Source: an uncultured Planctomycetales bacterium
Lineage (GTDB): Bacteria > Omnitrophota > Gorgyraeia > Zapsychrales > JANLHA01
Length of the DNA stretch: 64,000 nt
Assembly: GCA_964474085.1 (NCBI GenBank)
Contig: CAYYRJ010000007.1
Location: 8,001 to 72,000, forward strand
Direction: 5' to 3'
Position 1 is the first letter of the stretch; every line of letters begins with the position of its first letter. The notes beneath the pieces were generated by a model. It ran no database searches and had not been told where the DNA came from. It saw only the letters and a program-made list of their open reading frames with translations. The translations under genes were made by a program, and so were the position numbers. Below are positions 3,416-64,000 of this stretch, in pieces.

Positions 3416-3477
3416 AATAAAAACCTTTATATAATTTAAAACTCGCAGGGAACAGGCATGCCTGTTCCCTACCAAAA

Positions 3478-8013: not shown

Positions 8014-8094
8014 CAGATAAAATCTCCGCAACCTTCTACAAATTAAAAACTTTCACGCCATCCAAAATAATTTAAACATCCAAAACAAGGGCGT

Positions 8095-8123
8095 ATTTTA
8101 ATAGTTTTTATCGTAAGATGCAA
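8095..8123 (-). promoter_or_regulatory. Sigma-70-type promoter for gltBD (-35 TTGCAT, 17-nt spacer, -10 TAAAAT)
   Basis: On the minus strand: TTGCAT at 8118-8123, a 17-nt spacer, and TAAAAT at 8095-8100. It is about 80 nt upstream of the gltB ATG. Confidence 0.45.
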
Positions 8124-8249
8124 TATATTATTTTGATTTACTTGCCCGACGGTGAAGAATCAACAAGAACACAAATTAACCAGGAGTCAGCGATGTACTT
8201 ATTTTTATAAAATACACCAGAATCTCAAAAATTCACTAAATTTTCTCGA

Positions 8250-9428: not shown

Positions 9429-9435
9429 GATTCTC

Positions 9436-11124: not shown

Positions 11125-11149
11125 ATAAAAGTGACTCAAAGGTTGGTGG

Positions 11150-11854: not shown

Positions 11855-11894
11855 AAAAAAAATAAACCTCCGGTCGTCGTTTGCTAAACTTAAC

Positions 11895-11973
11895 GATTTA
11901 GGAGTTCCTTTTTTCGGCTCAATTGTTTGGCGCCTCTATGGCGCTATTCGCCTTAAAAAGGAACCCCTAAATC
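11895..11973 (-). repeat. Copy 1 of the conserved-core / variable-stem hairpin repeat (core TTTTTCGGCTCAATTGTTTGGCGCCTCTATGGCGCTATTCGCCTTAAAAAG)
   Basis: The 45-nt core is almost identical at 19941-19988 and 32660-32709. The flanking arms gatttaggagttcc / ggaacccctaaatc are complementary apart from one A:C, which is G:U on the minus RNA. It lies in the intergenic region between glnN and the GATase gene. Confidence 0.8.
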
Positions 11974-12001
11974 ATTAAAATTACAATGTCACGTAATAAG
12001 C

Positions 12002-12070
12002 AGGGGCACGACGCATCGTGCCCCTACAACTGCTTCATTCTGTAGGAAACGGTTTCAAACCGTTCCCTAC
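12002..12070 (-). terminator. Two tandem GC-rich hairpins directly downstream of the glnN stop (putative terminator or mRNA 3' stabiliser)
   Basis: The hairpins are GGGGCACGA-cgca-TCGTGCCCC (12003-12024) and GTAGGAAACGGTTT-c-AAACCGTTCCCTAC (12042-12070). The single mismatch is a G:U on the minus RNA. There is no strong U-tract. Confidence 0.35.
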
Positions 12071-12079
12071 AAAAGTTTA

Positions 12080-14224: not shown

Positions 14225-14263
14225 AAAATTTTCTCCTTTGTCCCGCGCCTGGAATAAGGCGGC

Positions 14264-14292
14264 ATTTTAACAAGCTGCCCGCATAATGTCAA
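14264..14292 (-). promoter_or_regulatory. Sigma-70 consensus promoter for glnN (-35 TTGACA, 17-nt spacer, -10 TAAAAT)
   Basis: On the minus strand: TTGACA at 14287-14292, an exact 17-nt spacer, and TAAAAT at 14264-14269. It is about 40 nt upstream of the glnN ATG, which has an AAAGGAGAAAA Shine-Dalgarno. Confidence 0.5.
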
Positions 14293-14310
14293 TCAAGCTC
14301 TCGACCGCTT

Positions 14311-14353
14311 AAAATGCGACGGGCGGGCGGACTTTAAATCTTATCCACCCGCC
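14311..14353 (-). terminator. Possible weak intrinsic terminator after glnB
   Basis: On the minus RNA, a 10-bp GC-rich stem GGCGGGUGGA / UCCGCCCGCC (one G:U) with a 12-nt loop is followed 5 nt later by AUUUUAA, a short U-tract. Confidence 0.3.
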
Positions 14354-14383
14354 TTTGCCGCCTAAAAACATCGCCAAACAATT

Positions 14384-14725
14384 TTACCCGATTGCGTCCG
14401 GGCCTTCATCGCCAGTACGGATACGGATACAGCGCGGCAATTCAACGACAAAAATCTTTCCGTCGCCGATTTTTCCCGTGCGCGCCCCGCGGATAATCGC
14501 TTTGATCGTTTTGTCAACAAAGTTCTCGTTGACCGCGATTTCAAGCTTAACCTTGCGCAAAAGGTTCCCGGTTTCTTTAACGCCGCGATAGAACTCGTCA
14601 ACACCTTTTTGACGACCGTGTCCCAAAACTTCGCTGACGGTAATCAGATTGACATCTTCTTTATACAATTCTTTTTTGACATCTTCCAACCGATGCGGCT
14701 GGATAATTGCTATGATCAGTTTCAT
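14384..14725 (-). CDS. glnB: Nitrogen regulatory protein P-II (GlnB/GlnK)
   Basis: 112-aa P-II fold with a T-loop region (RYRGVKE…-like, GHGRQKG) and a C-terminal GDGKIFV motif. It lies immediately downstream of amtB, the classic amtB-glnK arrangement. Confidence 0.9.
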
Positions 14726-14771
14726 TTAAGACGCCCTCCTTAAAGATTCACTTAAAAAAGTAAATAACGGT

Positions 14772-16013
14772 TTATTCAAAAATCGTGTACGCGCGTTCAT
14801 GGTGCTGAGAAAGATCCAAGCCCATGACTTCATCTTCGGCAGAAGCCCTGACTCCAACGATAGCGTCCACAATTTTAAAAATAATAAATGTTCCAACGGC
14901 TGACCAAACAACCGTTACCCCAACAGCAGCAAGCTGAATTAAGAATTGCTTAGGGTTTCCATAAAATAACCCGTTAGCGCCCGCTGAATTAACTGTTGTC
15001 GTCGCAAAAACACCCGTTAATAAAGCGCCCCAAATCCCGCCGATCCCATGGACGCCGAAAGCGTCGAGAGAATCGTCATAGCCGAGTTTAGGTTTCAAAT
15101 ATCCGACGGCAAAGAAACACACAACGCTGACCGTCAAACCGATAATAAGCGCACCGGTGGTATCCACAAACCCTGCCGCAGGCGTAACCGCAACCAAGCC
15201 TGCAACCACACCTGTGGCCACACCGAACATCGTCGGCTTGCCGCTAACTAACCATTCTATAATTGCCCAGCTTAAACCCGCTGCAGCAGCAGCCGTATTG
15301 GTTGTAATAAAAGCATTCGCAGCTAAACCATTTGCTGCCAAGGCACTTCCCGCATTAAACCCAAACCAGCCAAACCACAACAGCCCGGCGCCCAAAACAA
15401 CAAAAGGCATATTGTGAATGGCCATCGGCTTATTTTCATAACCTAAACGTTTACCCAACATCAAAGCACACACAAGCGCGGCAACACCGGCGTTGATATG
15501 AACAACCGTTCCGCCGGCAAAATCCAAAGCGCCCCAGGCGCGGACCCAACCGCCGAGCGCCCAAACCATATGACAGATCGGATCATAAACCAACGTTGCC
15601 CACAAAATCATAAATAAGAGAAAAGCCGCAAACTTCATGCGTTCCGCAAAAGCGCCGATAATAAGCGCTGGCGTGATAATCGCAAACATCGCCTGAAAAA
15701 TCATAAACGCCTGATGCGGAATTGTCGCCGCATAATCAGCATTTGCAGCTTGACCCACACCGTTTAACCCAAGCCAACTTAAACCCCCAACAAACGGATT
15801 TCCCGGGCCAAAAGCTAAACTATAACCAAACAAAACCCATTGAATACTGATAACACACATCAACATAAAACATTGCATCAAAATACCTAAAACGTTTTTA
15901 CGACGAACCATACCTCCGTAAAAGAAGGCCAAGCCTGGGGTCATCAAAAGCACAAGCGCACTGCTCGCCAAAACCCAAGCTGTATCTCCCGCGTTAATTG
16001 GAACTGGCTCCAT
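14772..16013 (-). CDS. amtB: Ammonium transporter AmtB/Amt family
   Basis: 11-TM Amt signature (…LLMTPGLAFFYGGMVR…, GAVAERMKF-like, HGIGGIWG). Confidence 0.92.
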   Translation of the reverse strand: MEPVPINAGDTAWVLASSALVLLMTPGLAFFYGGMVRRKNVLGILMQCFMLMCVISIQWVLFGYSLAFGPGNPFVGGLSWLGLNGVGQAANADYAATIPHQAFMIFQAMFAIITPALIIGAFAERMKFAAFLLFMILWATLVYDPICHMVWALGGWVRAWGALDFAGGTVVHINAGVAALVCALMLGKRLGYENKPMAIHNMPFVVLGAGLLWFGWFGFNAGSALAANGLAANAFITTNTAAAAAGLSWAIIEWLVSGKPTMFGVATGVVAGLVAVTPAAGFVDTTGALIIGLTVSVVCFFAVGYLKPKLGYDDSLDAFGVHGIGGIWGALLTGVFATTTVNSAGANGLFYGNPKQFLIQLAAVGVTVVWSAVGTFIIFKIVDAIVGVRASAEDEVMGLDLSQHHERAYTIFE

Positions 16014-16124
16014 GGTACATTCTCCTTTGCTGTGAAACGGTTTACTCTGTGTTTAATCCCTAAATTTGAATTTCCCTGAAGCTATAGGCTGACTCTTAGC
16101 ATTTGATCATTTACGCTTTGGGTC

Positions 16125-16183
16125 AATAAAAAATCCCCTAACCGCCATTTTCATTAATGGTTCGCTAGAGGACATCTTTGCCC
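16125..16183 (-). promoter_or_regulatory. amtB-glnB leader: intrinsic terminator whose apical hairpin, with an upstream hairpin, carries AxxGxx hexaloops (candidate ANTAR dual-hairpin antitermination target)
   Basis: Minus RNA hairpins: P1 is GGGC-AAAGAU-GUCC (16170-16183) and P2 is CCAUU-AAUGAA-AAUGG (16145-16160). Both hexaloops have A at position 1 and G at position 4. The outer stem CCUCUAGC / GGUUAGGGG (16164-16171 and 16135-16143) is followed by AUUUUUUAUU (16125-16134). The P1 3' arm overlaps the terminator 5' arm. A GAF-ANTAR gene lies immediately upstream. Confidence 0.45.
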
Positions 16184-16233
16184 GCACTTCATTTTTTCTG
16201 CCTAAAGACTTCAACGCCTTTAGAGACTTTCAA

Positions 16234-16262
16234 AGTATAGAAGTACACTTTAGTTTTGTCAA
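16234..16262 (-). promoter_or_regulatory. Sigma-70 consensus promoter for amtB-glnB (-35 TTGACA, 17-nt spacer, -10 TATACT)
   Basis: On the minus strand: TTGACA at 16257-16262, a 17-nt spacer, and TATACT at 16234-16239. It lies just downstream of the ANTAR gene stop and about 220 nt upstream of the amtB ATG. Confidence 0.5.
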
Positions 16263-16288
16263 CTATTTTTTAAAAATCGGTTGTTTTT

Positions 16289-17551
16289 TTACTTGCTAAA
16301 CTCGTCCATCAAAATAATCGACTCAGCGATGTCTTTCATCGATTTGCAGGTGTCCATGCTTTTTTTATGGATAAGCCGATGGGCGGCTTCTTCGGTAAGA
16401 TGGTTCATGCGCATCAAAATCCCCTTGGCGCGTTCGACAAGTTTGCGGGTTTCCAAAGCTTCACGGGTTTTGGAAGCTTCTTCGACGAGTTTCGTGTTCT
16501 CAACAGCGACAGCAGCCTGATTAGCCACCATTTGCAGGACGCTGACTTCCTCGCCGGAAAACTGGTGGAATTCCTTGGTATAAACGTTGATGACACCAAT
16601 GGCTTTATCTTTGACAATCATCGGGACAGCGACCATCGAAGAAAGATTTTCTTTGATCGCAAGCTCCCGATAAGCATAACGTTCATCCTGCCGGACATCT
16701 TCGACGACCAGAGGATTTTTGGTTTTGACCACATCACCGACCAAACTATTTTTAACTTTAAGATTGGGCTTTTTAATATATTCTTCACTTAAGCTCTGCG
16801 TGGCCTTGATGCTAAGCTCCTCGCCCTTTTCATCCAAAAGCATGATTGAACAGATCTTCGAATTAAGCATCTCCGCAGTAATAACAACGATAAGATTTAA
16901 AATCTCGTCGAGATAGCGCTGGGAGGTAATCGAATGGCTGACTTTGACCAAACTGTCAAATTGGCTGGCCTTCTGCTTGGTGTCCTCAAAAAGACGCGCA
17001 TGCTCAATGACCCCGCCGACCTGTTTGGCAATCGTATCGATTAAATTCACAGAACTTGTCGAATATTCATGCGGGTTTTTGTGCTGGACATTGATAACGC
17101 CGCTGACTTTTCCCTTATAAATGATCGGAACAGAAAGAAAAGCTTCATAGCGGTCTTCGGGTAAAACATCAAAACCTTTAAAGCGCGGGTCCTGATACGC
17201 ATTTTTTTTGATAGCGACCGGTTTATTGTGTTCGGCGACCCAGCCGGTAATCCCTTCGCCGACGCGCAAATTGATTTTGCCGAGCACTTTTTTGTGCGGC
17301 GTTTTGGAAGCCATCAGGACAAGATTCTTTTTGCCGCGGTCAAAAAGATAAACAAAAATCGAATCGGCTTTCGTCATTTCATTGACGATGCCGACGACTT
17401 CATGCAAAATGCCCGCCAAATCCAAGTCGGAACACGTGATATCTACAATCCGCCGCAAAATCTTGAGCTCTTGCGCACTGGAAATATTAAGCGTAACGCT
17501 TGTCAAAGCTGTTGTATTTTTAACTTTTTTTGTCTGTGCCATGAAAGCCAT
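16289..17551 (-). CDS. GAF-GAF-ANTAR RNA-binding antitermination regulator
   Basis: Two GAF-like domains precede a C-terminal ANTAR domain (ALETRKLVERAKGILMRMNHLTEEAAHRLIHKKSMD…). It sits directly upstream of the promoter and terminator-containing leader of amtB. Confidence 0.75.
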   Translation of the reverse strand: MAFMAQTKKVKNTTALTSVTLNISSAQELKILRRIVDITCSDLDLAGILHEVVGIVNEMTKADSIFVYLFDRGKKNLVLMASKTPHKKVLGKINLRVGEGITGWVAEHNKPVAIKKNAYQDPRFKGFDVLPEDRYEAFLSVPIIYKGKVSGVINVQHKNPHEYSTSSVNLIDTIAKQVGGVIEHARLFEDTKQKASQFDSLVKVSHSITSQRYLDEILNLIVVITAEMLNSKICSIMLLDEKGEELSIKATQSLSEEYIKKPNLKVKNSLVGDVVKTKNPLVVEDVRQDERYAYRELAIKENLSSMVAVPMIVKDKAIGVINVYTKEFHQFSGEEVSVLQMVANQAAVAVENTKLVEEASKTREALETRKLVERAKGILMRMNHLTEEAAHRLIHKKSMDTCKSMKDIAESIILMDEFSK

Positions 17552-52565: not shown

Positions 52566-53354
52566 CTACCGAACGCTTTTAAGGCTATGGTGTTTGCTGA
52601 TAAAAAACTTCTCTTGTCCAATCGGTACAAAATTAAGCGAAACATTATAAAACAAATCAAAATTATCAGCCAGCCCATCGATCGCTTGCCCAGACCCTGA
52701 TTTTGTACTACCCTGAGCATTCTTGATCCGCTTATTACTAAGAGCTATCAATTTATAACTATTGTCAACGACCTTACGAAAAATGAGAACGCTCAAAGCT
52801 CTGTACTTCTCTGCCAACTCCTTGGGCCACAACTGAATATAATCCAATTGCATGCTCTCCTGAAGATCTTTTTGTGTCAATCGCGCAGATTTTGCAAAAT
52901 GCTCACTTGCCATAGTGTATTGACCCCGCTTAAAATAAACAAGTCCCAAATTATAATTTAACCAAAACTCTTTGGGCTCAAGCTCAATGGCTTTTTTAAA
53001 ATACACAAGCGCCTCCTCGGTGTTATTAAGATAATAATCACACGTGGCCATCATCGCATAGACGCGGCTTAAGGCCGTCGGCTTAAAAACCATGTCACTT
53101 TTTTCATAATAAGAGATCGCGTAAGAAATAGCTTGATAATATTTTTTGGCACGCCGAAACTCTTTTTGGTCAAAAACAGCGCGGCGGGTCAAATACATAA
53201 CCGGATACTCTGCGGAATCTTGCAAAAAATTTACACGCGCCAATTTGACCTTTTCGACATCAACGCATAAAACAAGCAACAGTCCAATCAGGCAATAATA
53301 CGCGCCCACACGGGAAAAACATTGACGAAAAAAGAAAACACCGGCCCGCAACAT
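52566..53354 (-). CDS. Membrane-anchored TPR-repeat protein
   Basis: N-terminal TM segment and TPR-like repeats (AISYAISYYEKS…, ALVYFKKAIELEPKEFWLNYNLGLVYFKRGQY). Confidence 0.55.
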   Translation of the reverse strand: MLRAGVFFFRQCFSRVGAYYCLIGLLLVLCVDVEKVKLARVNFLQDSAEYPVMYLTRRAVFDQKEFRRAKKYYQAISYAISYYEKSDMVFKPTALSRVYAMMATCDYYLNNTEEALVYFKKAIELEPKEFWLNYNLGLVYFKRGQYTMASEHFAKSARLTQKDLQESMQLDYIQLWPKELAEKYRALSVLIFRKVVDNSYKLIALSNKRIKNAQGSTKSGSGQAIDGLADNFDLFYNVSLNFVPIGQEKFFISKHHSLKSVR

Positions 53355-53358
53355 GAAT

Positions 53359-55551
53359 TTATTTTTCCTTTATTCTTAGCCACAAAAGATAAATCAAAAG
53401 AAACACCAAAACAATCGCAAGCCAAACAGAACTAAACAACACATCAGCCGGCCTATACTGCAAATCAATTTCATTAACCCCCGGCGGCAAATATATTCCC
53501 TTAAAGGCCATATTCGCTCGATAAATAACAGCCGGCTTTCCATTGATTAATGCCTTCCAATCTTTATGATAACTGTCTGTATAAACCAAAAACTTCTCGT
53601 CGGGAAAATGCGTCTGGATCTTAATTGAATTGACATCAAAGGAAAGCACCTTAAATAAGTCAGAAGGGCCGCGGACAATCGAAACTGGTTTTAAAAGCGC
53701 CGCAGGGATTTTTGTCATCAAGCCGGACAATTGCTCCACACTCTCTCCAGGAGCAACAAAAGCCACATTGCGTTCTGTTCTAAAACTGTTTGCAAGGTCT
53801 TGAAAATTCCCAATATTTCTTAAAATATCGACGGCATCATAAATATAAAATTTATTGGCTGTATATTTCTGCAAATCATCAAAGGGAACTTTCACCGTCA
53901 ATTCATAAGACCAAAATGTCGGAAAACCGTTTTCATAAAACCGAGTCGCATCTGTCATCTTAATGCGCGATATCTCAGCATTGTCGCTACTGGTGGCCTG
54001 CGCTAAATTCATCCGCGTATAAACAAAAACCGGCTTAACAGAAGAAACGGCAAGACAATCCACAGTCGATTCTTTGCTCATATAGCTTGTATAGGAAGAA
54101 GCCCGTCGCCCACTTTGATTATGCCGCCAAATCACTTCAAACGGCTGGACAACAATGCTTAAAAACAGTAGGGCCACTAACAAAGCTTCGTTTTTGCGTT
54201 TTTTGTCAAAAACAAATACGGACCAGAACAAAAAACTTAACCCTAAAGCTAAAAACGAAGAAACAATAATATTTTTTTGACTACCTAAAAAACCCGCAAG
54301 ACCAAGATGGACCAAGACAAGAAAAACAAAAAACGAAATGCGATATTTCTCAATAATAACCTTGCGCTTTTCAAAAAGAATACGGATTTGCTCAGAAACA
54401 AATAATGTTAAAACCCCCAGAAAAAAAGGAAGAAAAAAATGCATATTGCGTATTAACTTAAAATAAACAACATGATCAAATGCCAACCGATGCAATCCTG
54501 CGCCCGACGACATCATCAAAAGAAATAGTATCAGAGCCGCCCCCAGGCAAACCGCGAGAACTTTGGTCATGCTAAGCACTGCTCCCAAAATTAAAACTAT
54601 ATAAACAAAAAGAGAGACATAAAAAAAGCAATCGTCCCCGTATTGGATGCTGTCCAAATTCGCATAAAGATCTTCGATATCCATCCGGCTCGCAAAACCA
54701 ATCTTGGAAACTTTCTCGTAATCCATAAAATCAACCCCTACGTTTTTTTGACCGGCCCCATTTCGAAAAGGCGCAACCACTTGATTGCTAACGGTACTTT
54801 GGTACGCTTGGTAGCCGGGAATAACCGCAAGGACAAGAACTCCAAAGAAGAAAACAACTAACGTCACGCGTCGATAAATAAATTCAGCTATCGGCGTAAA
54901 GACTGTTTTTATTGCAGGGAAATTAAAAAACAGTGTCCCCGCCGCGCTGATAATAAAAACCGTGAGAAAATAAAACGGCAAATAAGACGTCAAAATCAAT
55001 GACGCCGCAAAAATAAGCCCTGCCAACATCAAGCAAGAAGGTTTTTTAAAAAAAGAAATCAGGAAATAAAAGAACCATATCGCAGGGATATAAATCAGCG
55101 GGGTGTGAAACTGACCAAACATCGAGAGACTTATTGTCGAAAACAAAAACAATAGAAAAGCTATGTATGCGGCGCGTCCATCCTTCAAAATAATTTTTGC
55201 TAATAGATAAAACCCTAACTGTCCGATCCAAAAATACACACTGATCGTATACAAAAAAGACGGATAAAAACTTAAGCCCAATGTATTGAAAATAATCGTC
55301 AAAAGCCAAAGAGGATTAAAGATCCCAACATAATTTAGAAGGATTTGCGTCGGAGCGCCCCACATAACAAACGGATCCCACAGAGGAAAAACGCCAAGCT
55401 TCACATTGTCGACATAGAACTTAACAACCGCATAAATATGCAGTGTTTCAAAACCAATAAAAGCCTCCCTCAAGAAAATAGGCTTAAAAAGAAAGCACCA
55501 GATTCCAAACGGGATGAAAAACTTGAAGAATGTTTTTATTTTATTTTTCAA
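53359..55551 (-). CDS. Large polytopic membrane protein (putative glycosyltransferase / YfhO-like, uncharacterised)
   Basis: 730 aa and more than 12 TM helices in the first 450 aa, then an extracytoplasmic C-terminal domain. No catalytic motif can be assigned from sequence alone. Confidence 0.35.
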   Translation of the reverse strand: MKNKIKTFFKFFIPFGIWCFLFKPIFLREAFIGFETLHIYAVVKFYVDNVKLGVFPLWDPFVMWGAPTQILLNYVGIFNPLWLLTIIFNTLGLSFYPSFLYTISVYFWIGQLGFYLLAKIILKDGRAAYIAFLLFLFSTISLSMFGQFHTPLIYIPAIWFFYFLISFFKKPSCLMLAGLIFAASLILTSYLPFYFLTVFIISAAGTLFFNFPAIKTVFTPIAEFIYRRVTLVVFFFGVLVLAVIPGYQAYQSTVSNQVVAPFRNGAGQKNVGVDFMDYEKVSKIGFASRMDIEDLYANLDSIQYGDDCFFYVSLFVYIVLILGAVLSMTKVLAVCLGAALILFLLMMSSGAGLHRLAFDHVVYFKLIRNMHFFLPFFLGVLTLFVSEQIRILFEKRKVIIEKYRISFFVFLVLVHLGLAGFLGSQKNIIVSSFLALGLSFLFWSVFVFDKKRKNEALLVALLFLSIVVQPFEVIWRHNQSGRRASSYTSYMSKESTVDCLAVSSVKPVFVYTRMNLAQATSSDNAEISRIKMTDATRFYENGFPTFWSYELTVKVPFDDLQKYTANKFYIYDAVDILRNIGNFQDLANSFRTERNVAFVAPGESVEQLSGLMTKIPAALLKPVSIVRGPSDLFKVLSFDVNSIKIQTHFPDEKFLVYTDSYHKDWKALINGKPAVIYRANMAFKGIYLPPGVNEIDLQYRPADVLFSSVWLAIVLVFLLIYLLWLRIKEK

Positions 55552-55767: not shown

Positions 55768-57315
55768 ATGATCAGTCAAAAAGAAAAGCCAGCGGTTCTT
55801 CTTCTGTATCCTAAAACAGGAATGGACTTTGGGTCCACCATCGCCCCGCCACACGCTTTACTGACAATTGCCGCCCCTGTTCTTGCAGCCGGCTACAGTG
55901 TTAAAATCCTCGACCAGCGCGTCGAATCGATTACCCAAGAAATTCTCGAAAATTATTTATCAACGGATACTATTTGTGTCGGCATCTCTTCGATGACTGG
56001 GACACAAATTCTTTATGCACTTAAACTCGCACAAATGGTGCGCGACATCGTTGGCAACAAAGTCCCGTTGGTTTGGGGTGGTTGCCATCCTTCCGTGGCG
56101 GCAGAGCAAACTCTCAAGCACAAAAATGTCGATATTGTTGCCATCGGGGAGGGTGACGAAACTTTTATCGAGCTCGTCGAAGCCTTGGCGCACAAACGCA
56201 GCCTTAGAAGCGTTAAAGGAATTATGTACAAGGACGGCCCGACATTTGTCAAAACCGATTGCCGACCACTTTTGGATGTCGAATCGCTTCTTCCCACGCC
56301 GTGGGAACTGATTCCCGTCGAAAAATATATTCACCGCGATATGTACGTCAATTCCAAAACACGGGTTTTGGATATCGGACAAACCAGCCGCGGCTGTCCT
56401 TTTAACTGCGGATTTTGTTCGAGCGCTTCGCTGCGCGAGAGAAAATGGCGTGCTGTCTCGGTCAACAAAACGTTGGCGCGCATTGAGGATGAAATCAAGC
56501 GTTTTAAGCTCGACGGGATATGGCTGCGCGATGACGAATTCTACATCAACCGCAAACGCGCCACGGATATTTGCCAGGGATTTATCGACAAAGAATTTAA
56601 CTTGAGTTTTTATACCTCCGGAACGCGGGCGGATGTTTTTATGAAAGCGTCCGACCAGGACATTGATATTCTCAAACGTTCAGGCGCGCATACCTTAAAG
56701 TTTGGCGCTGAGTCCGGATCGCAGCGTATTCTGGATTTGATGACCAAAGGCATTGTTGTCCAACAGACGCTTGATTCAAATGAACGCTGCAAAAAGTTTG
56801 GAATTACACCGGTCTTTGGGCTTATGGTCGGCTATCCGACGGAAACATTTGCAGAAATCAACCAGACGATTGACCTTGGCTTTCGCATCAAAAAAGAAAA
56901 TCCCGGAGCCCAGCTTGAGACGATGGCTATTTTTACACCGCTTCCGGGGACCCCGGATTTTAACTTGTCCTTAAAGCATGGACTTATTCCCCCGCAATCA
57001 TTAGAAGAGTGGGGCGACTGGATTTTTGACGATTACGATTTGGCCGGACGAAGAAATCCCTGGTTTGACTTAAAAGGCCGTATGAAATTAGGGAACATTT
57101 CTTACATGAGCATTTTGGCTCATGCACTCGAAAATGTTATGGGAAGCTTACACAACAAAAGCCTGCGGTATATTGCAACACGTCTTTCTAAACCTGTCAG
57201 CTATTACTACACCCAAAAATTGAATAATAAAATGTATAATTTCGCGCCGGACTTAGGGTTAGTCCGTCATTTGCGCCATGAGCTTTTTTATAAAAGCGAC
57301 TTTACCATCAATTAA
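55768..57315 (+). CDS. B12-binding domain radical SAM protein (class B rSAM)
   Basis: N-terminal cobalamin-binding Rossmann (VLLLYPK…, [13 protein letters not shown]…[11 protein letters not shown]) followed by a radical SAM core with CPFNCGFC (CxxxCxxC). Confidence 0.85.
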
Positions 57316-57317
57316 CT

Positions 57318-57596
57318 ATGGAAAATACTCTACTTAGCAATGTTCCAATTGTTGAAAAGCAAGAAAACAAAATTTCTAGTCGGCCTCGCGTCGAAATTAT
57401 TGGGCCTCGAGAAGTTAAGACAACGATTCTTACCAAAGTTTTGATCCTTTTGGCGTCCGTGATCCTGATGTTCGCCACGTGCCTGCTCATTGCTTATCTG
57501 CACGCCTACAAAATTTTTAGAAAATTTAAACTCGCCGATCCGTTCCACGATTCACGCAAGCATCCGCTCAATGACCCGCATGCCCCGCGCGGATAA
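57318..57596 (+). CDS. Small single-TM membrane protein, translationally coupled to the rSAM gene
   Basis: Starts 3 nt after the rSAM stop. One TM helix (LILLASVILMFATCLLIAYL) and a His/Pro-rich tail. Confidence 0.4.
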   Translation: MENTLLSNVPIVEKQENKISSRPRVEIIGPREVKTTILTKVLILLASVILMFATCLLIAYLHAYKIFRKFKLADPFHDSRKHPLNDPHAPRG

Positions 57597-57631
57597 TAAA
57601 CAAAGCCTTCCACATCCAAAATGTATTTTTA

Positions 57632-59329
57632 TCAACGAGATAATGTCGCAGAAGTCTTTTTGAGAACAGGGTGTTGCGGTAAAACATTTTGTAAAATCGC
57701 ATCAGCAATATTTTGTGCCATCAGCCTGCTTCCTCTTGGCGTGAAATGACCGAAATCGCCAAAAATCCGATCCCGAAAATAATCATAATAGGTCGCCTGC
57801 TTTAACGCTGCCTTAAACGACGTCTGGGTATCAACATAAATAACATTGGACGAGGAACCCAGCATGAGCTTTAGCTGATTAATATTAAGATTTGGATATT
57901 GTACGGCAACCAAAGGAATCCGGTTAGCAGAAGAAACATCCAAGATTTTTTGATAATATTTTTTTGTTTCCTGATTATAAGTATTTTCATAACTGTTTAA
58001 CCGCGCCTTTAACTTTTGTGCTTTTTCCAGCTGATTTTGAGCGGTATAAACAGTAATTAAACCAGAAAGGCTCTCCACGTCTGTGCCGACATAAAAATCA
58101 TCTTCCAGACTTTTTTCATCGGGAATTTTTAATGCCGTAAGAAAAACCTCTTGTGCCAAAGCATATTTTTTATCTTCAATAAAATAAGCCCCCAATTGCG
58201 TATAAAATATCTTTTTGTGAGGATTACTCTGAATGGCTCTCGACAATATCTTCTGCGCAGATGCAACGTTTCCTAAGGCGCGATAACAATAGGCAAGCTG
58301 CAGCCAAGATTCGGCTTCGTCCGATTTTATACTCAGCGATTTCTGATAATTAGCAATTGCTAATTCATATTGCCCTCTTCGAACATAACATCCGGCCAAT
58401 CCATTGTAAAAAATATAATTTCCCGGATAAAAAGATAGCGCCTCTTGATAATTAGCAATTGCTAATTCATATTGCCCTGTATCATGATAGCAATTCCCTA
58501 AGTGGCTATAAAACAAGGTTTTGTCCGACGCCATCGAGTTTGGACAAAAACGCAAAGCCTTAGCAAAAGCGTCAATCGCGCGCGAATAATCAACGAGTTG
58601 AAGATAATGTTTCGCAATAAAATACCACGCCTTATAATTATGCGGGTCCAGAGCAACCGCCTTTTCAAAATATCCCAAAGCTTTTTCACTCTGATTAATT
58701 GCGCGATAATATTGTCCAACTTCCGTGTAAGCGCGCGCGCTGGGATTTATTTTTAAAGCTCGCTCAAATTGTTCACCCATCTTTTCTTGATTCTTGGATA
58801 GCCCTATTGTCTGCGGGTGGCTTTGGGGCATCGCTCTGGCGCGAAGCGTTTGCTGCCATAAATCTGCAATCATTTGAGCGACATGAAAATGTTTAGTCAA
58901 AATATTGTTCGGCTTCGGAAGAAACATCGTCGAAGAAGTTGGCGTATAAGTATCAATAGCGCCCAACAATGTTGTAATAACATCTGGGCGATATTTCTTA
59001 ATAAGCTCCTCGATTTGTCCGGCAACCATCGAAGTATTAGCGTTGGGAATGCCATGATTAATCACGGCGACTTTCCTGTCCAAAAAACTAGCACTTAAAA
59101 TTTCTTGCAATTGACTAGGATACGTATTGCGCCCGCCGACGGCTGTTTCTGACGCACCTAAGCAAAGAATCCGAAACTCATTATTAGTTTTAATATTTCG
59201 CCAATTGTAAAATTCTTGCATGGAAATAAATAGAACCCCTCCCAAGCGAAGAATTCCTTCTAAAAAAATAAAAAATAGAGAGATTTTCAAAAAAGCTCTC
59301 CAAAATATAGGCAACTTTGACAGTTTCAT
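57632..59329 (-). CDS. Membrane-anchored SGNH/GDSL-like hydrolase or acyltransferase with a TPR array inserted between catalytic blocks
   Basis: N-terminal TM. Block I is a GDS(L)-like motif (RILCLGASETAVGG). At least 7 TPR/Sel1-like repeats follow (residues ~190-400). The C-terminal block V is DxxH-like (GDFGHFTPRG). The gene is adjacent to the MBOAT gene. Confidence 0.55.
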   Translation of the reverse strand: MKLSKLPIFWRAFLKISLFFIFLEGILRLGGVLFISMQEFYNWRNIKTNNEFRILCLGASETAVGGRNTYPSQLQEILSASFLDRKVAVINHGIPNANTSMVAGQIEELIKKYRPDVITTLLGAIDTYTPTSSTMFLPKPNNILTKHFHVAQMIADLWQQTLRARAMPQSHPQTIGLSKNQEKMGEQFERALKINPSARAYTEVGQYYRAINQSEKALGYFEKAVALDPHNYKAWYFIAKHYLQLVDYSRAIDAFAKALRFCPNSMASDKTLFYSHLGNCYHDTGQYELAIANYQEALSFYPGNYIFYNGLAGCYVRRGQYELAIANYQKSLSIKSDEAESWLQLAYCYRALGNVASAQKILSRAIQSNPHKKIFYTQLGAYFIEDKKYALAQEVFLTALKIPDEKSLEDDFYVGTDVESLSGLITVYTAQNQLEKAQKLKARLNSYENTYNQETKKYYQKILDVSSANRIPLVAVQYPNLNINQLKLMLGSSSNVIYVDTQTSFKAALKQATYYDYFRDRIFGDFGHFTPRGSRLMAQNIADAILQNVLPQHPVLKKTSATLSR

Positions 59330-59330
59330 A

Positions 59331-60764
59331 TTAAAATTGATAATAAATAAATTGTTCCGCCGTCATAACCCCGAACCCCAACATCAAGTACGTCATCAAA
59401 GCATAAGAAAATATCTTTAATATCCAATGCTGTCTATACAAGAAAAGCTCGTCGTTAGTCCGCCACTCGCCAAGCTGAACAAGCAACAAAGGAATCGAAA
59501 AAACAACCAACTTTTGCAACAGGCCAAGCGCGTTTTCATTAAGATCAAAATTAAAAAAAAGATTTTGTGTCAGCAAACCAATATGAATAAATCCAGCCGA
59601 ACGAAAGATCAAAAAACCCAGCATGGTGACATGAAACATAATCACAATGCGAATAAATAAAAAAGCCTTGCTTATCCAAGGCGACGAAAAAAGGACCGGA
59701 GAACGGAATTTGCCGCGGAAACCCATGTAAATTAACAAAACAGAACCATTATAAATTCCCCAATAAATATATTTCCACGCGGCGCCATGCCAAAAACCCA
59801 TAATCGTCATCGTAATTAAAATCGTTATATAAACACGAACATTACCTGAAATATTCTTCAGGGCGATAAAAACAGGAAAATAAACGTAATCCCGGATCCA
59901 ATGGCTCAAACTCATATGCCATTGATTCCAAAAATCTTGCGGGTTTGTAACAAAAAATGGTTGCCGAAAATTAATAATCGTTTCAAAACCCATCAGCTTG
60001 CCTAACCCGCGAGCAATATGGCTGTACCCTCCAAAATCGCAAAAAACTTGCAAGCAAAAAGCATAGGAAGCGAAAAGCACTTCTGCACCGCTGGGTAAAG
60101 CCGAAGGATTAAAAATGGGCTCAACGATTTTGGCCAGATTGTCAGCAATAAAAATCTTTAAAAACATCCCATAAAAAATCAGATGAGCTCCCTCGAGAAA
60201 AAGGGCTAAAGTAACTCGCCGAGATTTTGCAATCTGTGGGAGCAGATGCTTGGCCCGCTCAATGGGGCCCGCCAAAAGCTGAGGGAAAAAAGCGACAAAA
60301 AGCGCGTAATCAAAGAATTTTCGAGTTGGAATTATTTCCCGACGATAAATATCAATCGTATAGCTCATCGTCTTAAAAGTATAAAAGGATATCCCAATCG
60401 GAAGAAAAATCTTTAAGCTAATCGACGGAACAGAAATATGCAGCAATTCGAGCACAGCCATGCAGTTGTCTAGGAAAAAATTGAAATATTTAAAAAATCC
60501 GAGGATGCAAAGATTTCCCGCGAGACTCAAAAACAGAAAAAGCTTCCTTTCTCTTTGTTGTTGGGCTTCGGATATTTTAATGCCACAGAAGAAATCCAAA
60601 ATCGTCGACGCCATAATAAGCAAAAGAAAGCGCCAATCCAAAAAACCATAAAAAAAATAACTGGCAACAAACAAAAGGCTGTTTTGCCATTTATGATTAA
60701 AAATCAAATAAAGGCTGTAAACTAAAACAAAAAAAACAAGAAACTCAAAAGAATTAAACAACAT
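59331..60764 (-). CDS. MBOAT-family membrane O-acyltransferase (DltB/AlgI/PatA-like)
   Basis: About 10 TM helices and the conserved MBOAT His region (…FWNQWHMSLSHWIRDYVYFP…). Confidence 0.85.
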   Translation of the reverse strand: MLFNSFEFLVFFVLVYSLYLIFNHKWQNSLLFVASYFFYGFLDWRFLLLIMASTILDFFCGIKISEAQQQRERKLFLFLSLAGNLCILGFFKYFNFFLDNCMAVLELLHISVPSISLKIFLPIGISFYTFKTMSYTIDIYRREIIPTRKFFDYALFVAFFPQLLAGPIERAKHLLPQIAKSRRVTLALFLEGAHLIFYGMFLKIFIADNLAKIVEPIFNPSALPSGAEVLFASYAFCLQVFCDFGGYSHIARGLGKLMGFETIINFRQPFFVTNPQDFWNQWHMSLSHWIRDYVYFPVFIALKNISGNVRVYITILITMTIMGFWHGAAWKYIYWGIYNGSVLLIYMGFRGKFRSPVLFSSPWISKAFLFIRIVIMFHVTMLGFLIFRSAGFIHIGLLTQNLFFNFDLNENALGLLQKLVVFSIPLLLVQLGEWRTNDELFLYRQHWILKIFSYALMTYLMLGFGVMTAEQFIYYQF

Positions 60765-60792
60765 AAAAAACTTACTCCAGATTAACCGGCGG

Positions 60793-61548
60793 CTATAATT
60801 TGACCATCAGGCATTGAGAGCCCAGCATCTCAATAACGGGCTCAGGTTTATCAAAAAAGAACTCATCAACCGCTTTCTTGACCCCTGGCGCATAGTTATA
60901 ATCATCACAAAAAATAATGCCCCCAGCATTCATCCGCTGATAAAAGAAATTAAAACAAGCTTTTGTGCTTTCATAAGTATCCACGTCGAGATTGACAAAA
61001 GCAAAACGCCTGTCCTTAATAGGCTCTGCGGTTTGAGGAAAAATGCCGGGATAAAAAGAAACCTGCGAATATCCTTTAAGATACTCTTTAACACCAGAGA
61101 GCGACGCGCTGTATTGCCCCTTTTGAAAATGCGTTTGATCAATCGGATCAACCTGCGGAAGACCAGAAAAAGTATCAAACAGATGCAAAAACTTTTCGCC
61201 TTTCGCCTCACAAATAAGTTTAGCGGACCCGCCATGATAAACCCCAACTTCGGCAATATCCCCTTGAATCTTTAAAACCTGCTTAATGCTCATATATAAC
61301 TGATAAGCCTCATTGACCGTCAAAAGAAATGGAACTTCCTCTTTGACCTTGTTGACCAGCTCGACAACAGCCGCCCGCTCTGGGTCTGAGTAAACACAAA
61401 CCAATCCTTTGCTTTTTTCCAAACTTTGCGCGGGAATCATAAGCAATCCGCCGCGACGAATCGACGAAAAAATCACCTCTTTAAAAACCTTGTGCGGGAA
61501 AAATTGTGTTTGGCCAAAAATAACCCACCTAAAAAACTTTTCTAACAT
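60793..61548 (-). CDS. Class I SAM-dependent O-methyltransferase, TylF/MycF (macrocin-O-MT) family
   Basis: The family motifs are present: GDIAEVGVYHGGSA (SAM-binding) and AFVNLDVDTYESTKACFNFF (the LDxDxYExT metal site). Confidence 0.75.
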   Translation of the reverse strand: MLEKFFRWVIFGQTQFFPHKVFKEVIFSSIRRGGLLMIPAQSLEKSKGLVCVYSDPERAAVVELVNKVKEEVPFLLTVNEAYQLYMSIKQVLKIQGDIAEVGVYHGGSAKLICEAKGEKFLHLFDTFSGLPQVDPIDQTHFQKGQYSASLSGVKEYLKGYSQVSFYPGIFPQTAEPIKDRRFAFVNLDVDTYESTKACFNFFYQRMNAGGIIFCDDYNYAPGVKKAVDEFFFDKPEPVIEMLGSQCLMVKL

Positions 61549-61561
61549 TATGCACCCCGAC

Positions 61562-63238
61562 TCACTTTCGAGTAAAACTAACTTCTTCTGGGTAAGAATA
61601 CGAATTTTTCATATCCCAAGAAAATAAATTTTCCTGACACTTAAAATTCAAAGAATTAAAAAATTCCAAACACGGCTTGTTGCGATCGGTTGGAATATAT
61701 TGCGCCAGAAGTTCTTTAATCCCCGCTTTTTGAGCTTGCTCAATAACAATTCCAAGCATGAGCTCTTCAATTTTTCGCCCAATGACGCGGCAACTTAATA
61801 CAAAATCACAAACATTCCCGACGGTATCACTCACAGCCAAACTGACTATCCCTGTCAATCCATAATCTCCAAATTTGTCAGCCACCCGCAAAGTCCAAAC
61901 AAAATGTCCTTCTTGGCTAGCCCAGCCGTAAAAGTCCTTTTCTAACATCCGTCGCGTCGTTAAATTCATTTGATTAGTCTTGTTTAACAATTGCGTGGCC
62001 CGGGGAAGATCCGCTTCATTTAACCGCTGTGCAATAACTTTAATGTCCAAAGTTTTAATCCACTGGGCAACCGACCCTAAGCTCTCTTTAAGATCACGGC
62101 GCTCTTTTTGATGAGCATAAAGTTCACTGCGCCCCAGATCTTCATTGGTTATCGCCAAAGTATCAAAGCAGGAAAGCTCCATCAATGTTTTTTTGTAGAG
62201 CAACTTATCCTCTGGCCACTGAGGAACAAAAACTTCAGGCAAAGCCTCTTTTATTCGCAAACGCTCCGCGGGACTATCATCGATAAAAACGCAAGAAGCC
62301 AATCCTAAATTAAGCTCTTGCGTAAGATCCATCAAATTCTCGGCCTTGTCTTTCCAGTTAATGCGCAGCGCAGAAAAATCTTCAATTTTTAATATCATTT
62401 CAGGGCGACGCATAAAGGCTTCTCGCACAAGAGCCTCGTCATTTTTGCTGATAACAGCCAATAAAATGCCACGATCCCGAAATGATTTTAGCGCCTGCTG
62501 AAAATCACAGAAAGCTTCTCCCAGAGGATCATGTCCGCCAAGACGAATATTTTGCCACCCAACCTCTCCAAGAATTCCGCCCCATAATGTTTCGTCGAGA
62601 TCGACAATAATAATTTTCTTTGCATCACCATAAGCATTGCTTAAAATTGCCAAAATATCCGCCGAAGCCTTTTTAAAAACCTCCTGACTAAAAGGAATTT
62701 TGCTAAGATACCACAAGGACAGATTAAAGGCATGTTCTCCCGCCGAGGAAAGCCAAGAGCGTGAATCTAAAAAATATGCGTTCTTTATTTGACTCAATCG
62801 TTGAGCCATCACCATGTTCATTTGAGCAAGAATATAGCGAACCCCTAAAGGATCCCTCATGTCCAAAACACCATACCCCCTAAAATTCGAAGGAATTTCC
62901 CAAGAAGGAATTAAAAAAAGCTGCGCCTTCTCTTGGGCGGCGGCAATTAAATCCGCGAAATGGTGAACCTCGCCAAGTATTATTGAAAGAGGCACACGCT
63001 TAAAACGCAAAACGTCAGCAAAAGCCGGAATGATTTTTTCGGGTTGGGTCCAGATCATAACGCAATGAAGCTCTGGCGTCCAACAAGGATGGTTCTGATC
63101 AATCAAGATGGGCACAACCTGCCCAAAAGGCGCAGTCAAAACATCACCTAAAGCCATCGGGCTATTTTGTAAATAGGCGCGCAGGACATCAATATTAAAA
63201 TCTGACATCAACAAAATGCGAATGATCTCTTTAGGCAT
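61562..63238 (-). CDS. FkbH-like HAD-IIIC phosphatase-fold protein with C-terminal GNAT-like region (putative carrier-protein loading enzyme)
   Basis: HAD motif I (IIIVDLDETLWGG), the motif SKN (AVISKNDEA) and DD… are present. The N-terminal extension and C-terminal acyltransferase-like tail match FkbH-like domain proteins. It is adjacent to an ACP gene. Confidence 0.7.
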   Translation of the reverse strand: MPKEIIRILLMSDFNIDVLRAYLQNSPMALGDVLTAPFGQVVPILIDQNHPCWTPELHCVMIWTQPEKIIPAFADVLRFKRVPLSIILGEVHHFADLIAAAQEKAQLFLIPSWEIPSNFRGYGVLDMRDPLGVRYILAQMNMVMAQRLSQIKNAYFLDSRSWLSSAGEHAFNLSLWYLSKIPFSQEVFKKASADILAILSNAYGDAKKIIIVDLDETLWGGILGEVGWQNIRLGGHDPLGEAFCDFQQALKSFRDRGILLAVISKNDEALVREAFMRRPEMILKIEDFSALRINWKDKAENLMDLTQELNLGLASCVFIDDSPAERLRIKEALPEVFVPQWPEDKLLYKKTLMELSCFDTLAITNEDLGRSELYAHQKERRDLKESLGSVAQWIKTLDIKVIAQRLNEADLPRATQLLNKTNQMNLTTRRMLEKDFYGWASQEGHFVWTLRVADKFGDYGLTGIVSLAVSDTVGNVCDFVLSCRVIGRKIEELMLGIVIEQAQKAGIKELLAQYIPTDRNKPCLEFFNSLNFKCQENLFSWDMKNSYSYPEEVSFTRK

Positions 63239-63247
63239 TAAAATTTT

Positions 63248-63577
63248 TTAAGTTGTAAATTTAAGAATATGATCTTGCAAAGTCGCAAGCGTCTTGAGGG
63301 GATTATGTTCAACCGACATCATCAACTGATCACTCAAAGAAATTCTTTTCCCAAACGCGTCACTATATTTTCTTTCGATGGCAACAATCAAAAGAATTAA
63401 TCCTAAGGAATCAAGCGCGCTTCCCGGGCCGACCAAGGACGTTTCTAGTGATTTTGAAATTTTCTTTCCCGCCGGCAAAGACTCATTTATTTCATCAATA
63501 GAAGCAAAGATCACAGCCGTTATTTTATCGATTTCGTTCATTGTGTTTATCACAAACCCCGCCTTGAAATTACCCAA
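63248..63577 (-). CDS. Acyl/peptidyl carrier protein (phosphopantetheine-binding)
   Basis: The LDSLG motif (GSALDSLGLILLIVAIERKY) marks the Ser attachment site. An alternative start is MNEIDKI at 63541. Confidence 0.7.
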   Translation of the reverse strand: MGNFKAGFVINTMNEIDKITAVIFASIDEINESLPAGKKISKSLETSLVGPGSALDSLGLILLIVAIERKYSDAFGKRISLSDQLMMSVEHNPLKTLATLQDHILKFTT

Positions 63578-63693
63578 TTTTCGACTGACATTTTATCTTA
63601 AGTTTCGACCAATAAAAGTCAAGAATTATAAAGTTAAAAGCTTGGGCAAACGCCGGACAATCGCGCAGTTTTCGAGAAATAAATCATGAGAAA

Positions 63694-64000
63694 CTAATTT
63701 AACAAAGCCCTGGTCATAAAACTATATTTTGGATTTTGGGTGCGGAAATATTTGGGATACAAAATCTCGACTAAAGAATACACATCCTGCGAATCCTCGG
63801 CATTTCGACGGACATTCAAGCATTTAAAATTCCCCGGAAAATCCGGCGCCACATAAAAAGAAAAATCCGGTTCATCTTTTTTGCTGGCAATGAGCAAATT
63901 AAGCGTCCTAAAAAGCACCTGGGTTTGATTGCTCAAAAGCGCTTGCTTTTGATTGCTCTGATACAGAAGCACGCCGTTGTGCAATATTAAAAAACAAAAA
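63694..64000 (-). CDS. Hypothetical protein, C-terminal fragment only (the N-terminus lies beyond the window edge)
   Basis: Open minus-strand frame running to the window end, stop at 63694. No recognisable motif in the 96 visible residues. Confidence 0.3.
   Translation of the reverse strand, partial: FCFLILHNGVLLYQSNQKQALLSNQTQVLFRTLNLLIASKKDEPDFSFYVAPDFPGNFKCLNVRRNAEDSQDVYSLVEILYPKYFRTQNPKYSFMTRALLN

Follow-up and report, generated by a model that had tools for sequence, protein, structure and literature searches.

Pathways in which a membrane-bound O-acyltransferase (MBOAT) is paired with an SGNH-type protein were divided, in mechanistic work from 2025, into Dlt, with a carrier protein as donor and a separate DltX, and the other systems, with acyl-CoA as donor and a fused shuttle, for which it is stated that there is no carrier protein (PMC12148441). 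The acyl shuttle is an FXYXXF motif, which in PatA is auto-acetylated on its tyrosine, the acyl group then being passed to the SGNH partner, and which in Dlt is supplied by DltX (PMC12148441). From natural product pathways it is known that FkbH together with a stand-alone acyl carrier protein (ACP) makes glyceryl-ACP (PMC7489565; PMC3679948), a polyketide example being BafAIV of 367 amino acids (aa) (PMC3679948), and for suomilide an FkbH step followed by an O-methyltransferase acting on carrier-bound glycerate has been proposed (PMC13122637). In the literature searched, for FkbH combined with DltB, with SGNH or with an envelope MBOAT of bacteria and for HAD-IIIC combined with ACP, the arrangement reported here is not described. 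Here we describe a five-gene operon in which these elements stand together, located in a 64,000 bp stretch of DNA from an uncultured bacterium of the Omnitrophota (contig CAYYRJ010000007.1, positions 8,001 to 72,000; the window). With moderate confidence we propose that it encodes a Dlt-like, carrier-dependent MBOAT-SGNH pathway which probably puts an O-methylglyceryl-type ester on a periplasmic polymer.

The operon is located on the minus strand from position 63553 to 57632, where the genes for a carrier protein, an FkbH-type loader, a TylF-type methyltransferase, an MBOAT and an SGNH-TPR protein follow each other head-to-tail with gaps of 9, 13, 28 and 1 nt, counted from the first gene to the last. 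A previous interpretation made from the letters only (the sequence-only reading) had placed five co-directional genes here, and all open reading frames (ORFs) that it described could be found at their coordinates; profile searches assigned FkbH, TylF, MBOAT and SGNH directly and the carrier protein only via a profile of its family. In the nearest genome record, a metagenome-assembled genome of Candidatus Omnitrophota (locus L007), the five genes are identical in order, with 68% identity for FkbH and 73% for the MBOAT. A scan for promoters and terminators gave 16 terminator-like sites, which equals background (shuffle mean 15.7), and 39 promoter-like sites, which is above it (shuffle 24.1, standard deviation 5.2), neither count defining the operon boundaries; one of the promoter-like sites, at 63622-63595 on the minus strand, precedes the carrier gene.

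The first gene (63248-63553, minus strand) encodes a stand-alone protein of ~97-101 aa (101 aa in public assemblies). The protein alone gave zero matches in direct Pfam, NCBIfam and PDB sequence searches and a word-indexed homologue search returned two relatives only, so a profile of homologues derived from the loci was needed. In ~68 of the 80 genome loci a homologue of ~100 aa immediately precedes FkbH, and when 30 of the homologues were aligned the serine of an LDSLG motif was the one invariant serine. Run against PDB sequences the family profile matched 29 proteins, all of them carrier proteins and among them DltC (from DltB-DltC complexes), the LDSLG serine standing at the centre of the alignment, and PF00550 was matched individually by 12 of the 30 family members. 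The AlphaFold2 model (shallow alignment, predicted local distance difference test (pLDDT) 76.7) consists of four helices, the second beginning at Ser45 (numbering of the 97-aa form), which is the predicted phosphopantetheine site. Because of the invariant LDSLG serine, the profile matches and the PF00550 matches in family members, the small first ORF is identified as a carrier protein with ACP fold and an invariant serine at the start of helix 2.

The second gene (61562-63238, minus strand, 558 aa) encodes the FkbH-type HAD-IIIC loader. Its match to TIGR01686 covers profile positions 2-322 of 323 with 301.8 bits against a cut-off of 146.65, TIGR01681 is matched with 63.5 bits, and residues 135-363 match PDB entry 3SLR (BF1531) with an E-value of 7.7e-46. 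The protein is built from an FkbH_N-like N-terminal domain, a HAD core and a C-terminal domain with the sequence SCRVIGR, and both the HAD motif DLDETLWGG (D213/D215) and Cys483 of SCRVIGR are invariant across the family. A full-length match at twice the cut-off, together with a carrier partner 9 nt away, bears out the FkbH-like assignment of the sequence-only reading. The family is large: at E<=1e-10 it has 5217 homologues, whose identity is typically 45-52%, in Omnitrophota, Chloroflexota, Desulfobacterota, Acidobacteriota, Planctomycetota and others, and it is annotated as "HAD-IIIC family phosphatase" only.

When the neighbours of the FkbH gene were clustered in 76 loci, the carrier protein was the constant partner while the other companions varied. 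The commonest neighbour, directly downstream of the carrier-FkbH pair in 23 of the 76 loci (e.g. L038:2196-3848), is a fusion of ~550 aa between a MaoC dehydratase and a FabG-like short-chain dehydrogenase/reductase (SDR); the other companions are GNAT-like proteins of 368-378 aa, glyoxalase, polysaccharide deacetylases, glycosyltransferases and epimerases, and in other phyla carrier-FkbH loci hold GNAT-like genes instead of MBOAT-SGNH. Examples of such neighbours come from the genome loci L003-L086 and include L029:8568-9674, and in L003 (Omnitrophota) the carrier-FkbH cassette is located within a gene set of nonulosonic-acid type, beside a B12-binding radical SAM gene. The carrier-FkbH pair is thus a widespread general module, of an apparently uncharacterised family.

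Downstream of the loader a TylF/NovP-family metal-dependent O-methyltransferase of 251 aa is encoded (60793-61548, minus strand; PF05711 73.3 bits, cut-off 23). Its PDB matches are the O-methyltransferases 5i10, NovP (2wk1) and MycF, and the metal-binding motif D-x-D-x-Y-E is kept, LDVDTYEST in the window being aligned to LDGDLYEST in 5i10. The slot between FkbH and MBOAT holds a TylF gene also in L007 (72% identity) and L167 (63%), while it is filled by the MaoC/SDR fusion in sister loci and holds no tailoring gene in other linked loci. The SDR half of the fusion resembles FabG, a reductase of ACP substrates. The slot between the loader and the MBOAT being shared by TylF and MaoC/SDR, the carrier-bound acyl group is the likely substrate of both as tailoring enzymes, and we propose this function for the TylF-type enzyme.

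The fourth gene (59331-60764, minus strand) encodes the MBOAT of 477 aa, which matches PF03062 with 55.7 bits and the DltB equivalog model TIGR04091 with 185.4 bits, against a cut-off of 375. The catalytic residue is His326, in the sequence WHG and invariant, and His283 is present as well. At the C-terminus an acyl-shuttle motif is fused, F472-I-Y474-Y-Q-F477, with F472, Y474 and F477 invariant, and F-[IV]-Y-x-x-F forms the C-terminal end of all MBOATs in the clade of the window MBOAT. The best structural match of its AlphaFold2 model (pLDDT 92.1) is DltB (8jem/6bug), with a TM-score of 0.70 on the target. Of the proposal that carrier protein, MBOAT and SGNH protein mirror DltC, DltB and DltD, the donor set stands but not the MBOAT architecture, which has the fused FXYXXF of PatA and AlgI and no DltX.

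The SGNH gene (57632-59329, minus strand) starts 1 nt past the stop of the MBOAT gene, and it is located directly downstream of the MBOAT gene also in L007, L167, L168 and L173. It encodes a membrane-anchored, SGNH acyltransferase-like protein of 565 aa with Lipase_GDSL_2, NonGDSL and TPR matches, an N-terminal transmembrane segment (residues 8-37), the GDSL/SGNH region at residues 56-167 and an inserted TPR array (~residues 180-440) that separates SGNH block III from block V; residues G58, S60, G123, D126, D520, G527 and H528 are invariant across 11 SGNH partners. In every linked locus (carrier-FkbH adjacent to the MBOAT gene) the gene after the MBOAT encodes a membrane-anchored SGNH-type protein, of which two kinds can be distinguished. 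In the first, Ser60 and His528 are invariant and the insert is helical or made of TPR repeats, and the second is a protein of 337-364 aa with an N-terminal transmembrane segment, an invariant G-x-S-Q, a C-terminal D-x-x-H and faint matches to the Pfam families LB_356 and DUF1574 (L016:6264-7358, L172:9445-10458, L174:9409-10473 and L171:9409-10092). This second partner looks DltD-like and takes the place of the SGNH-TPR protein in some linked loci.

Carrier-FkbH genes adjacent to an MBOAT and an SGNH or DltD-like partner were found in 13 independent loci, the window and L007, L016, L033, L037, L038, L044, L167, L168, L171, L172, L173 and L174, which differ in gene order and in tailoring gene (TylF, the MaoC-dehydratase/SDR fusion or none). 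In the survey based on FkbH, an MBOAT and an SGNH-type gene adjoin the carrier-FkbH pair only in Omnitrophota (L007, L016, L033, L037, L038 and L044), and this adjacency is confined to one Omnitrophota MBOAT clade. The individual contexts show how the cassette varies: carrier, FkbH, TylF, MBOAT and SGNH-TPR followed by a co-directional B12-binding radical SAM gene in P0123 (MBOAT 56% identical); carrier, truncated FkbH, MBOAT and SGNH-TPR in P0124; carrier, FkbH, MaoC-SDR and MBOAT in P0126; carrier, FkbH, MBOAT and the DltD-like partner in P0134; and in P0128 (L173) a minimal four-gene cassette of carrier, FkbH, MBOAT and SGNH-TPR, located between thiamine, biotin, UbiA and acetolactate synthase genes. 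The contexts of P0127 and P0131 contain neither carrier nor FkbH. Several of the linked loci are situated in clusters with glycosyltransferase and Wzm-Wzt genes or polysaccharide deacetylase genes. In L168 the FkbH (6800-7972) is truncated to residues 9-391, without the C-terminal domain that holds the SCR cysteine, and abuts or overlaps the start of the MBOAT gene, which could reflect decay of the gene or an error of assembly.

When linked MBOATs were aligned with their unlinked relatives, a signature appeared at four places. Linked MBOATs have Asn or Gln in FW[N/Q]xWH (N280 in the window) where the generic relatives have Arg or Lys, the segment following D292, YVYFPVFIALKNISGN, exceeds the generic YIPLG---GN[RK] in length by three residues, position 314 is Thr, Ala or Ser against a generic Asn, and position 384 is Met or Phe against a generic Trp. 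All 13 linked MBOATs carry the signature, while ~34-36 of the 37 unlinked relatives have YIPLGGN[RK] and usually W384. Sorted by regular expression, the non-generic MBOATs were adjacent to carrier-FkbH in 13 cases and not adjacent in four, and the generic ones in 0 and 34 cases, respectively (Fisher p ~5e-9, computed without correction for shared ancestry); among the four exceptions the true signature is found in L169 only. The 120 best MBOAT homologues comprise ~30 with the signature and ~88 of the generic type. In a prospective test of two look-ups, the signature-positive P0138 gave the informative result, having carrier, FkbH and MaoC-SDR genes directly upstream as predicted, in a GT2/GT4/Wzm/Wzt glycan locus, and the generic P0141 had neither carrier nor FkbH in its context, a weakly discriminating result since nearly all unlinked relatives lack both. 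A neighbour-joining tree of the MBOATs was rejected as a separator; it did not cleanly split linked from unlinked sequences and the indel signature did better.

The same features can be found in DltB. In a phmmer alignment with Streptococcus thermophilus DltB (6bug_C), the latter has FWNRWH, a Phe at the equivalent of position 384 and, where generic MBOATs have the Gly-Gly loop, the segment FMRLVIVLMRNKVFKNR. Cryo-electron microscopy has shown that Met36 and Val39 of DltC dock on Met302, Val305, Ile306 and Met309 of the horizontal helix HC of DltB and that Glu40 of DltC forms salt bridges to Lys312 and Arg317 (PMC11035591). The window residues F296, F299, I300 and K303 align to DltB M302, V305, I306 and K312, and L302 aligns to L308, the neighbour of M309. 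In the carrier family the residues at Ser+1 and Ser+4 are hydrophobic, as in DltC. At the level of sequence, the linked MBOATs are thus predicted to have a DltB-like carrier-docking segment, which is absent from their generic relatives. Together with the family assignments and the synteny in 13 loci, this segment upholds the core of the sequence-only reading, namely a Dlt-like route of carrier, MBOAT and SGNH protein in which an FkbH loader replaces DltA and an O-methyltransferase does the tailoring.

From the observed gene content, residues, folds, synteny and signature we infer a substrate, an order of steps, a use of the donor, a topology and a target as follows. By homology to characterised enzymes, the FkbH-type loader would use 1,3-bisphosphoglycerate and load a glyceryl thioester on the phosphopantetheine arm at Ser45 of the carrier, and the TylF-type enzyme would methylate a hydroxyl of the carrier-bound glyceryl group. 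Following the Dlt and PatA/PatB mechanisms, the acyl-carrier may then dock on the DltB-like cytoplasmic helix of the MBOAT (F296, F299, I300, L302 and K303), His326 would move the acyl group to Tyr474 of the FIYYQF shuttle on the periplasmic side, and Ser60 of the SGNH protein would take it over and esterify a periplasmic polymer, with the TPR insert possibly serving as a scaffold. The polymer is probably a glycan, which is suggested because linked loci sit in clusters of glycosyltransferases and ABC exporters. By analogy with polyketide loading modules of the bryostatin type, dehydration and reduction would give a lactyl group. Sister loci in which the MaoC-dehydratase/FabG-like reductase replaces the methyltransferase may accordingly transfer a different, possibly lactyl, group, and others would act without tailoring.

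Several points weigh against this pathway. The hosts are uncultured and the pathway is known here from genes alone, and in the 64-kb window no glycan synthesis cluster surrounds the operon, so no target is named by the context. The score of the DltB model hardly separates the linked MBOATs (172-185 bits) from the generic relatives (152-177 bits), and the resemblance to DltB is therefore local. The acidic residue at Ser+5, corresponding to the salt-bridge partner Glu40 of DltC, is not conserved in the carrier family, which has Leu or Asn. The characterised enzymes of the TylF family methylate sugars, so the window enzyme could act on the glycan. The FkbH proteins of linked loci are 46-52% identical, no closer to each other than to FkbH of unlinked loci, and with no co-divergence with the MBOAT the loader is therefore a plug-in module rather than a co-evolved partner. 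The MBOAT of L169 (8001-9440) has the full signature and is 74% identical to the linked L171, with no carrier or FkbH within 8 kb. The generic PLGGN[RK] was defined from relatives of the window MBOAT, with the characterised PatA and AlgI outside that comparison, and since signature and synteny mark one MBOAT clade their correlation may reflect a single event; given this limit, the resemblance to helix HC of DltB is the main independent support. In L169 the MBOAT gene is flanked by split fragments of a transporter gene (ACR_tran), with an SGNH gene on the opposite strand.

A different explanation is that two independent modules share the locus, an MBOAT-SGNH O-acetyltransferase using acetyl-CoA and a carrier-FkbH-methyltransferase set whose acyl group is put on a sugar precursor by a cytoplasmic acyltransferase encoded elsewhere. 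The fused shuttle of PatA/AlgI type would fit this, as would a loader that does not diverge together with the MBOAT and a carrier-FkbH pair that in most phyla has GNAT-like proteins and nonulosonic-acid genes as partners. MBOAT-SGNH pairs 47-54% identical to those of the window do occur without carrier and FkbH, an arrangement that the sequence-only reading had named as pointing to simple O-acetylation, but all except one are of the generic type, and a metagenome scan with the MBOAT alignment found carrier or FkbH in 0 of 80 loci, the MBOATs among the matches listed being 35-48% identical and mostly generic. In the operons of the window, L007 and L173 the MBOAT-SGNH pair is the only encoded acyltransferase that could use the acyl-carrier, and L173 is placed between housekeeping genes. 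The adjacency has moreover outlasted rearrangement in 13 loci, the linked MBOATs have the DltB-like docking segment in place of the PLGGN[RK] loop, and the signature-positive P0138 had the cassette directly upstream, as predicted. We therefore regard two independent modules as unlikely.

The pathway could also be carrier-dependent with an acyl group that is not derived from glycerate, the loader taking another phosphorylated or CoA-activated acid, or the TylF-like enzyme could methylate the polymer; we consider this quite improbable. Every cited characterised FkbH/ACP pair makes glyceryl-ACP, and the full-length match to the FkbH model at twice its cut-off and the invariant HAD motif and SCR cysteine speak for the same chemistry, even if the loader family, known only as 'HAD-IIIC family phosphatase', has no characterised member and the loader is ~200 aa longer than the polyketide FkbH BafAIV. 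As for methylation of the polymer, the nearest TylF relatives with a solved structure O-methylate sugars, while the position of the gene, in the slot taken by an ACP-type dehydratase/reductase in sister loci, argues for a carrier-bound substrate. A membrane lipid or a small molecule (e.g. a glycolipid or a lipid A-like molecule) as acceptor, in place of an envelope polymer, is very improbable, since the position of the window locus outside any glycan synthesis cluster and the lipid A-type acyltransferase gene adjoining the generic MBOAT of L170 are set against several linked loci inside glycosyltransferase/Wzm-Wzt or polysaccharide deacetylase clusters and against the fact that all characterised bacterial MBOAT-SGNH pairs modify polymers (PMC12148441).

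A wider conclusion is put forward more tentatively, our judgement being close to evenly divided and leaning slightly against it: that Omnitrophota have a second, hitherto unrecognised class of carrier-fed MBOAT-SGNH envelope acylation, that FkbH enzymes supply it with glycerate-derived esters for periplasmic glycans (O-methylglyceryl in the window, probably lactyl or plain glyceryl in sister loci) and that the HC segment, as opposed to the PLGGN[RK] loop, is a general marker of the donor for any bacterial MBOAT. If the carrier-dependent pathway proposed here is true, it would be only the second carrier-fed pathway of its kind after the D-alanylation of teichoic acid, and donor type and shuttle architecture would be separable. 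The chemistry of surface polymers would be widened from acetyl and D-alanyl groups to hydroxy-acid esters, the helix-HC segment would be a sequence marker for the choice between carrier protein and acyl-CoA as donor, and part of the large 'HAD-IIIC family phosphatase' family, found beside a small carrier in glycan loci of many phyla, would be given a role. The pathway would also be possible to reconstitute from five soluble or membrane proteins, with no need of a host culture.

The genes surrounding the operon were compared with those at the related loci. A class-B (B12-binding) radical SAM enzyme is encoded at 55768-57315 on the plus strand (PF02310 61.7 bits, PF04055 72.9 bits, no NCBIfam equivalog reached), followed 2 nt past its stop by an ORF of 92 aa with one predicted transmembrane segment (57318-57596, plus strand). 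This pair had been taken as divergently transcribed and as a partner of the cassette; it is in fact convergent with the operon (tail-to-tail, 35 nt) and divergent only from the YfhO-like gene described below, and the radical SAM genes near L167, L171, L003 and L175 are just 22-32% identical to each other. Orthology of the radical SAM genes across loci was rejected on this identity, the recurrence being at superfamily level only, and the enzyme may have a role in the cassette. B12-binding radical SAM genes adjoin generic and carrier-type MBOAT loci at L175:5647-7182 and L167:9445-11010, in glycan clusters of Omnitrophota. The 92-aa ORF gave zero family matches and zero homologues in ~175 fetched loci, and it may not be a real gene.

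On the minus strand, beyond the radical SAM gene, a polytopic membrane protein of 730 aa with many transmembrane segments is encoded (53359-55551), whose weakly YfhO-like C-terminus matches PF09586 over residues 635-702 only (29.3 against a cut-off of 28.5), and next to it a TPR protein of 262 aa with TPR matches and an N-terminal transmembrane segment at residues 12-39 (52566-53354, minus strand). Both are absent from the related loci, which does not support the suggestion that they form a larger envelope-modification unit with the operon. Upstream of the operon the 3' end of a gene for a 502-aa protein extends off the edge of the window (63694-63984, minus strand; full gene in L002:521-2029); the protein has no Pfam or NCBIfam match and the upstream ORF in L007 is unrelated. 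None of these four neighbours (YfhO-like protein, 262-aa TPR protein, 92-aa ORF and 502-aa protein) is conserved at related loci, and all were rejected as members of the cassette.

The rest of the window consists of housekeeping genes, among them succinyl-CoA ligase, CorA and TamB, and a block for nitrogen assimilation (1976-17551, minus strand) with the small and large subunits of glutamate synthase, NAD synthase, type III glutamine synthetase, an ammonium transporter (Amt) and a GAF-ANTAR regulator. Further genes encode a MacB/HlyD/TolC set, FeoB, sulfate and phosphate uptake and a porin, and the gene content of the window points to a diderm cell. Isolated between the genes for glutamate synthase and NAD synthase lies one for an AT3-family acyltransferase (8250-9428, minus strand; PF01757 102.7 bits), possibly a separate envelope acylation enzyme.

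In the Bacteroidota and Ignavibacteria loci L041 (16170-19475) and L050 (3517-6758), genes for an SGNH-like membrane protein of 467-487 aa, a PF00550 carrier of 75-77 aa and an MBOAT of 499 aa form a trio, the MBOAT ending in FXYXX[FY] and lacking the generic Gly-Gly loop, and a few kb away KASIII-like and GNAT genes accompany a carrier-FkbH pair. These uncharacterised trios are a second, independent type of carrier-linked MBOAT. They share with the window operon the FXYXX[FY] MBOAT, the PF00550 carrier, the SGNH-like protein and the nearby carrier-FkbH pair, but their MBOAT belongs to another clade (31-32% identity), their 75-aa carrier is separate and distinct from the one linked to FkbH, and KASIII-like and GNAT genes are present.

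When compared with the described FkbH/ACP modules (methoxymalonyl-ACP, tetronates and the BslA loading module of suomilide), the window operon has in common an FkbH enzyme beside a dedicated carrier with an O-methyltransferase downstream. It differs in having no polyketide synthase, nonribosomal peptide synthetase, FabH-like or dehydrogenase gene, in the extra N-terminal domain of ~200 aa in its loader (558 against ~367 aa) and in a product predicted to serve MBOAT-SGNH envelope modification and not a natural product. With PatA/PatB, AlgI/AlgJ/AlgX and WssH/WssI the likeness is in the MBOAT of ~470 aa with its catalytic His and fused C-terminal FXYXXF and in the separate periplasmic SGNH transferase encoded immediately downstream. 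These systems are stated to use an acyl-CoA donor and no carrier (PMC12148441), whereas carrier and loader are part of the operon here and adjacent in all 13 loci, and the cytoplasmic YIPLGGN[RK] loop of the generic relatives is replaced by the DltB-like segment in the window MBOAT.

With Dlt the operon shares a small, operon-encoded phosphopantetheinyl carrier protein, predicted to carry the acyl group, an MBOAT that would move this group across the membrane and whose best structural match is DltB, a membrane-anchored SGNH-type protein that would deliver it, and, within the window MBOAT, the Asn of FWNxWH and the hydrophobic/basic DltC-docking segment of DltB. Unlike Dlt it has no DltA, an AMP-binding domain being found in no ORF of the operon by Pfam and NCBIfam and the loader being an FkbH-type HAD enzyme, and the predicted acyl group is derived from glycerate and not D-alanine. 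There is no DltX-like ORF, FXYXXF being part of the MBOAT itself, where additional C-terminal helices carry it, and the MBOAT, well below the equivalog cut-off, is not a DltB orthologue. The host is a diderm member of the Omnitrophota and not Gram-positive, and the SGNH partner has a TPR insert. The cassette thereby combines both designs of MBOAT-SGNH system, contradicting the current generalisation that non-Dlt systems lack a carrier, and looks like a hybrid with the donor logic of Dlt, the MBOAT architecture of PatA/AlgI and a loader from polyketide chemistry.

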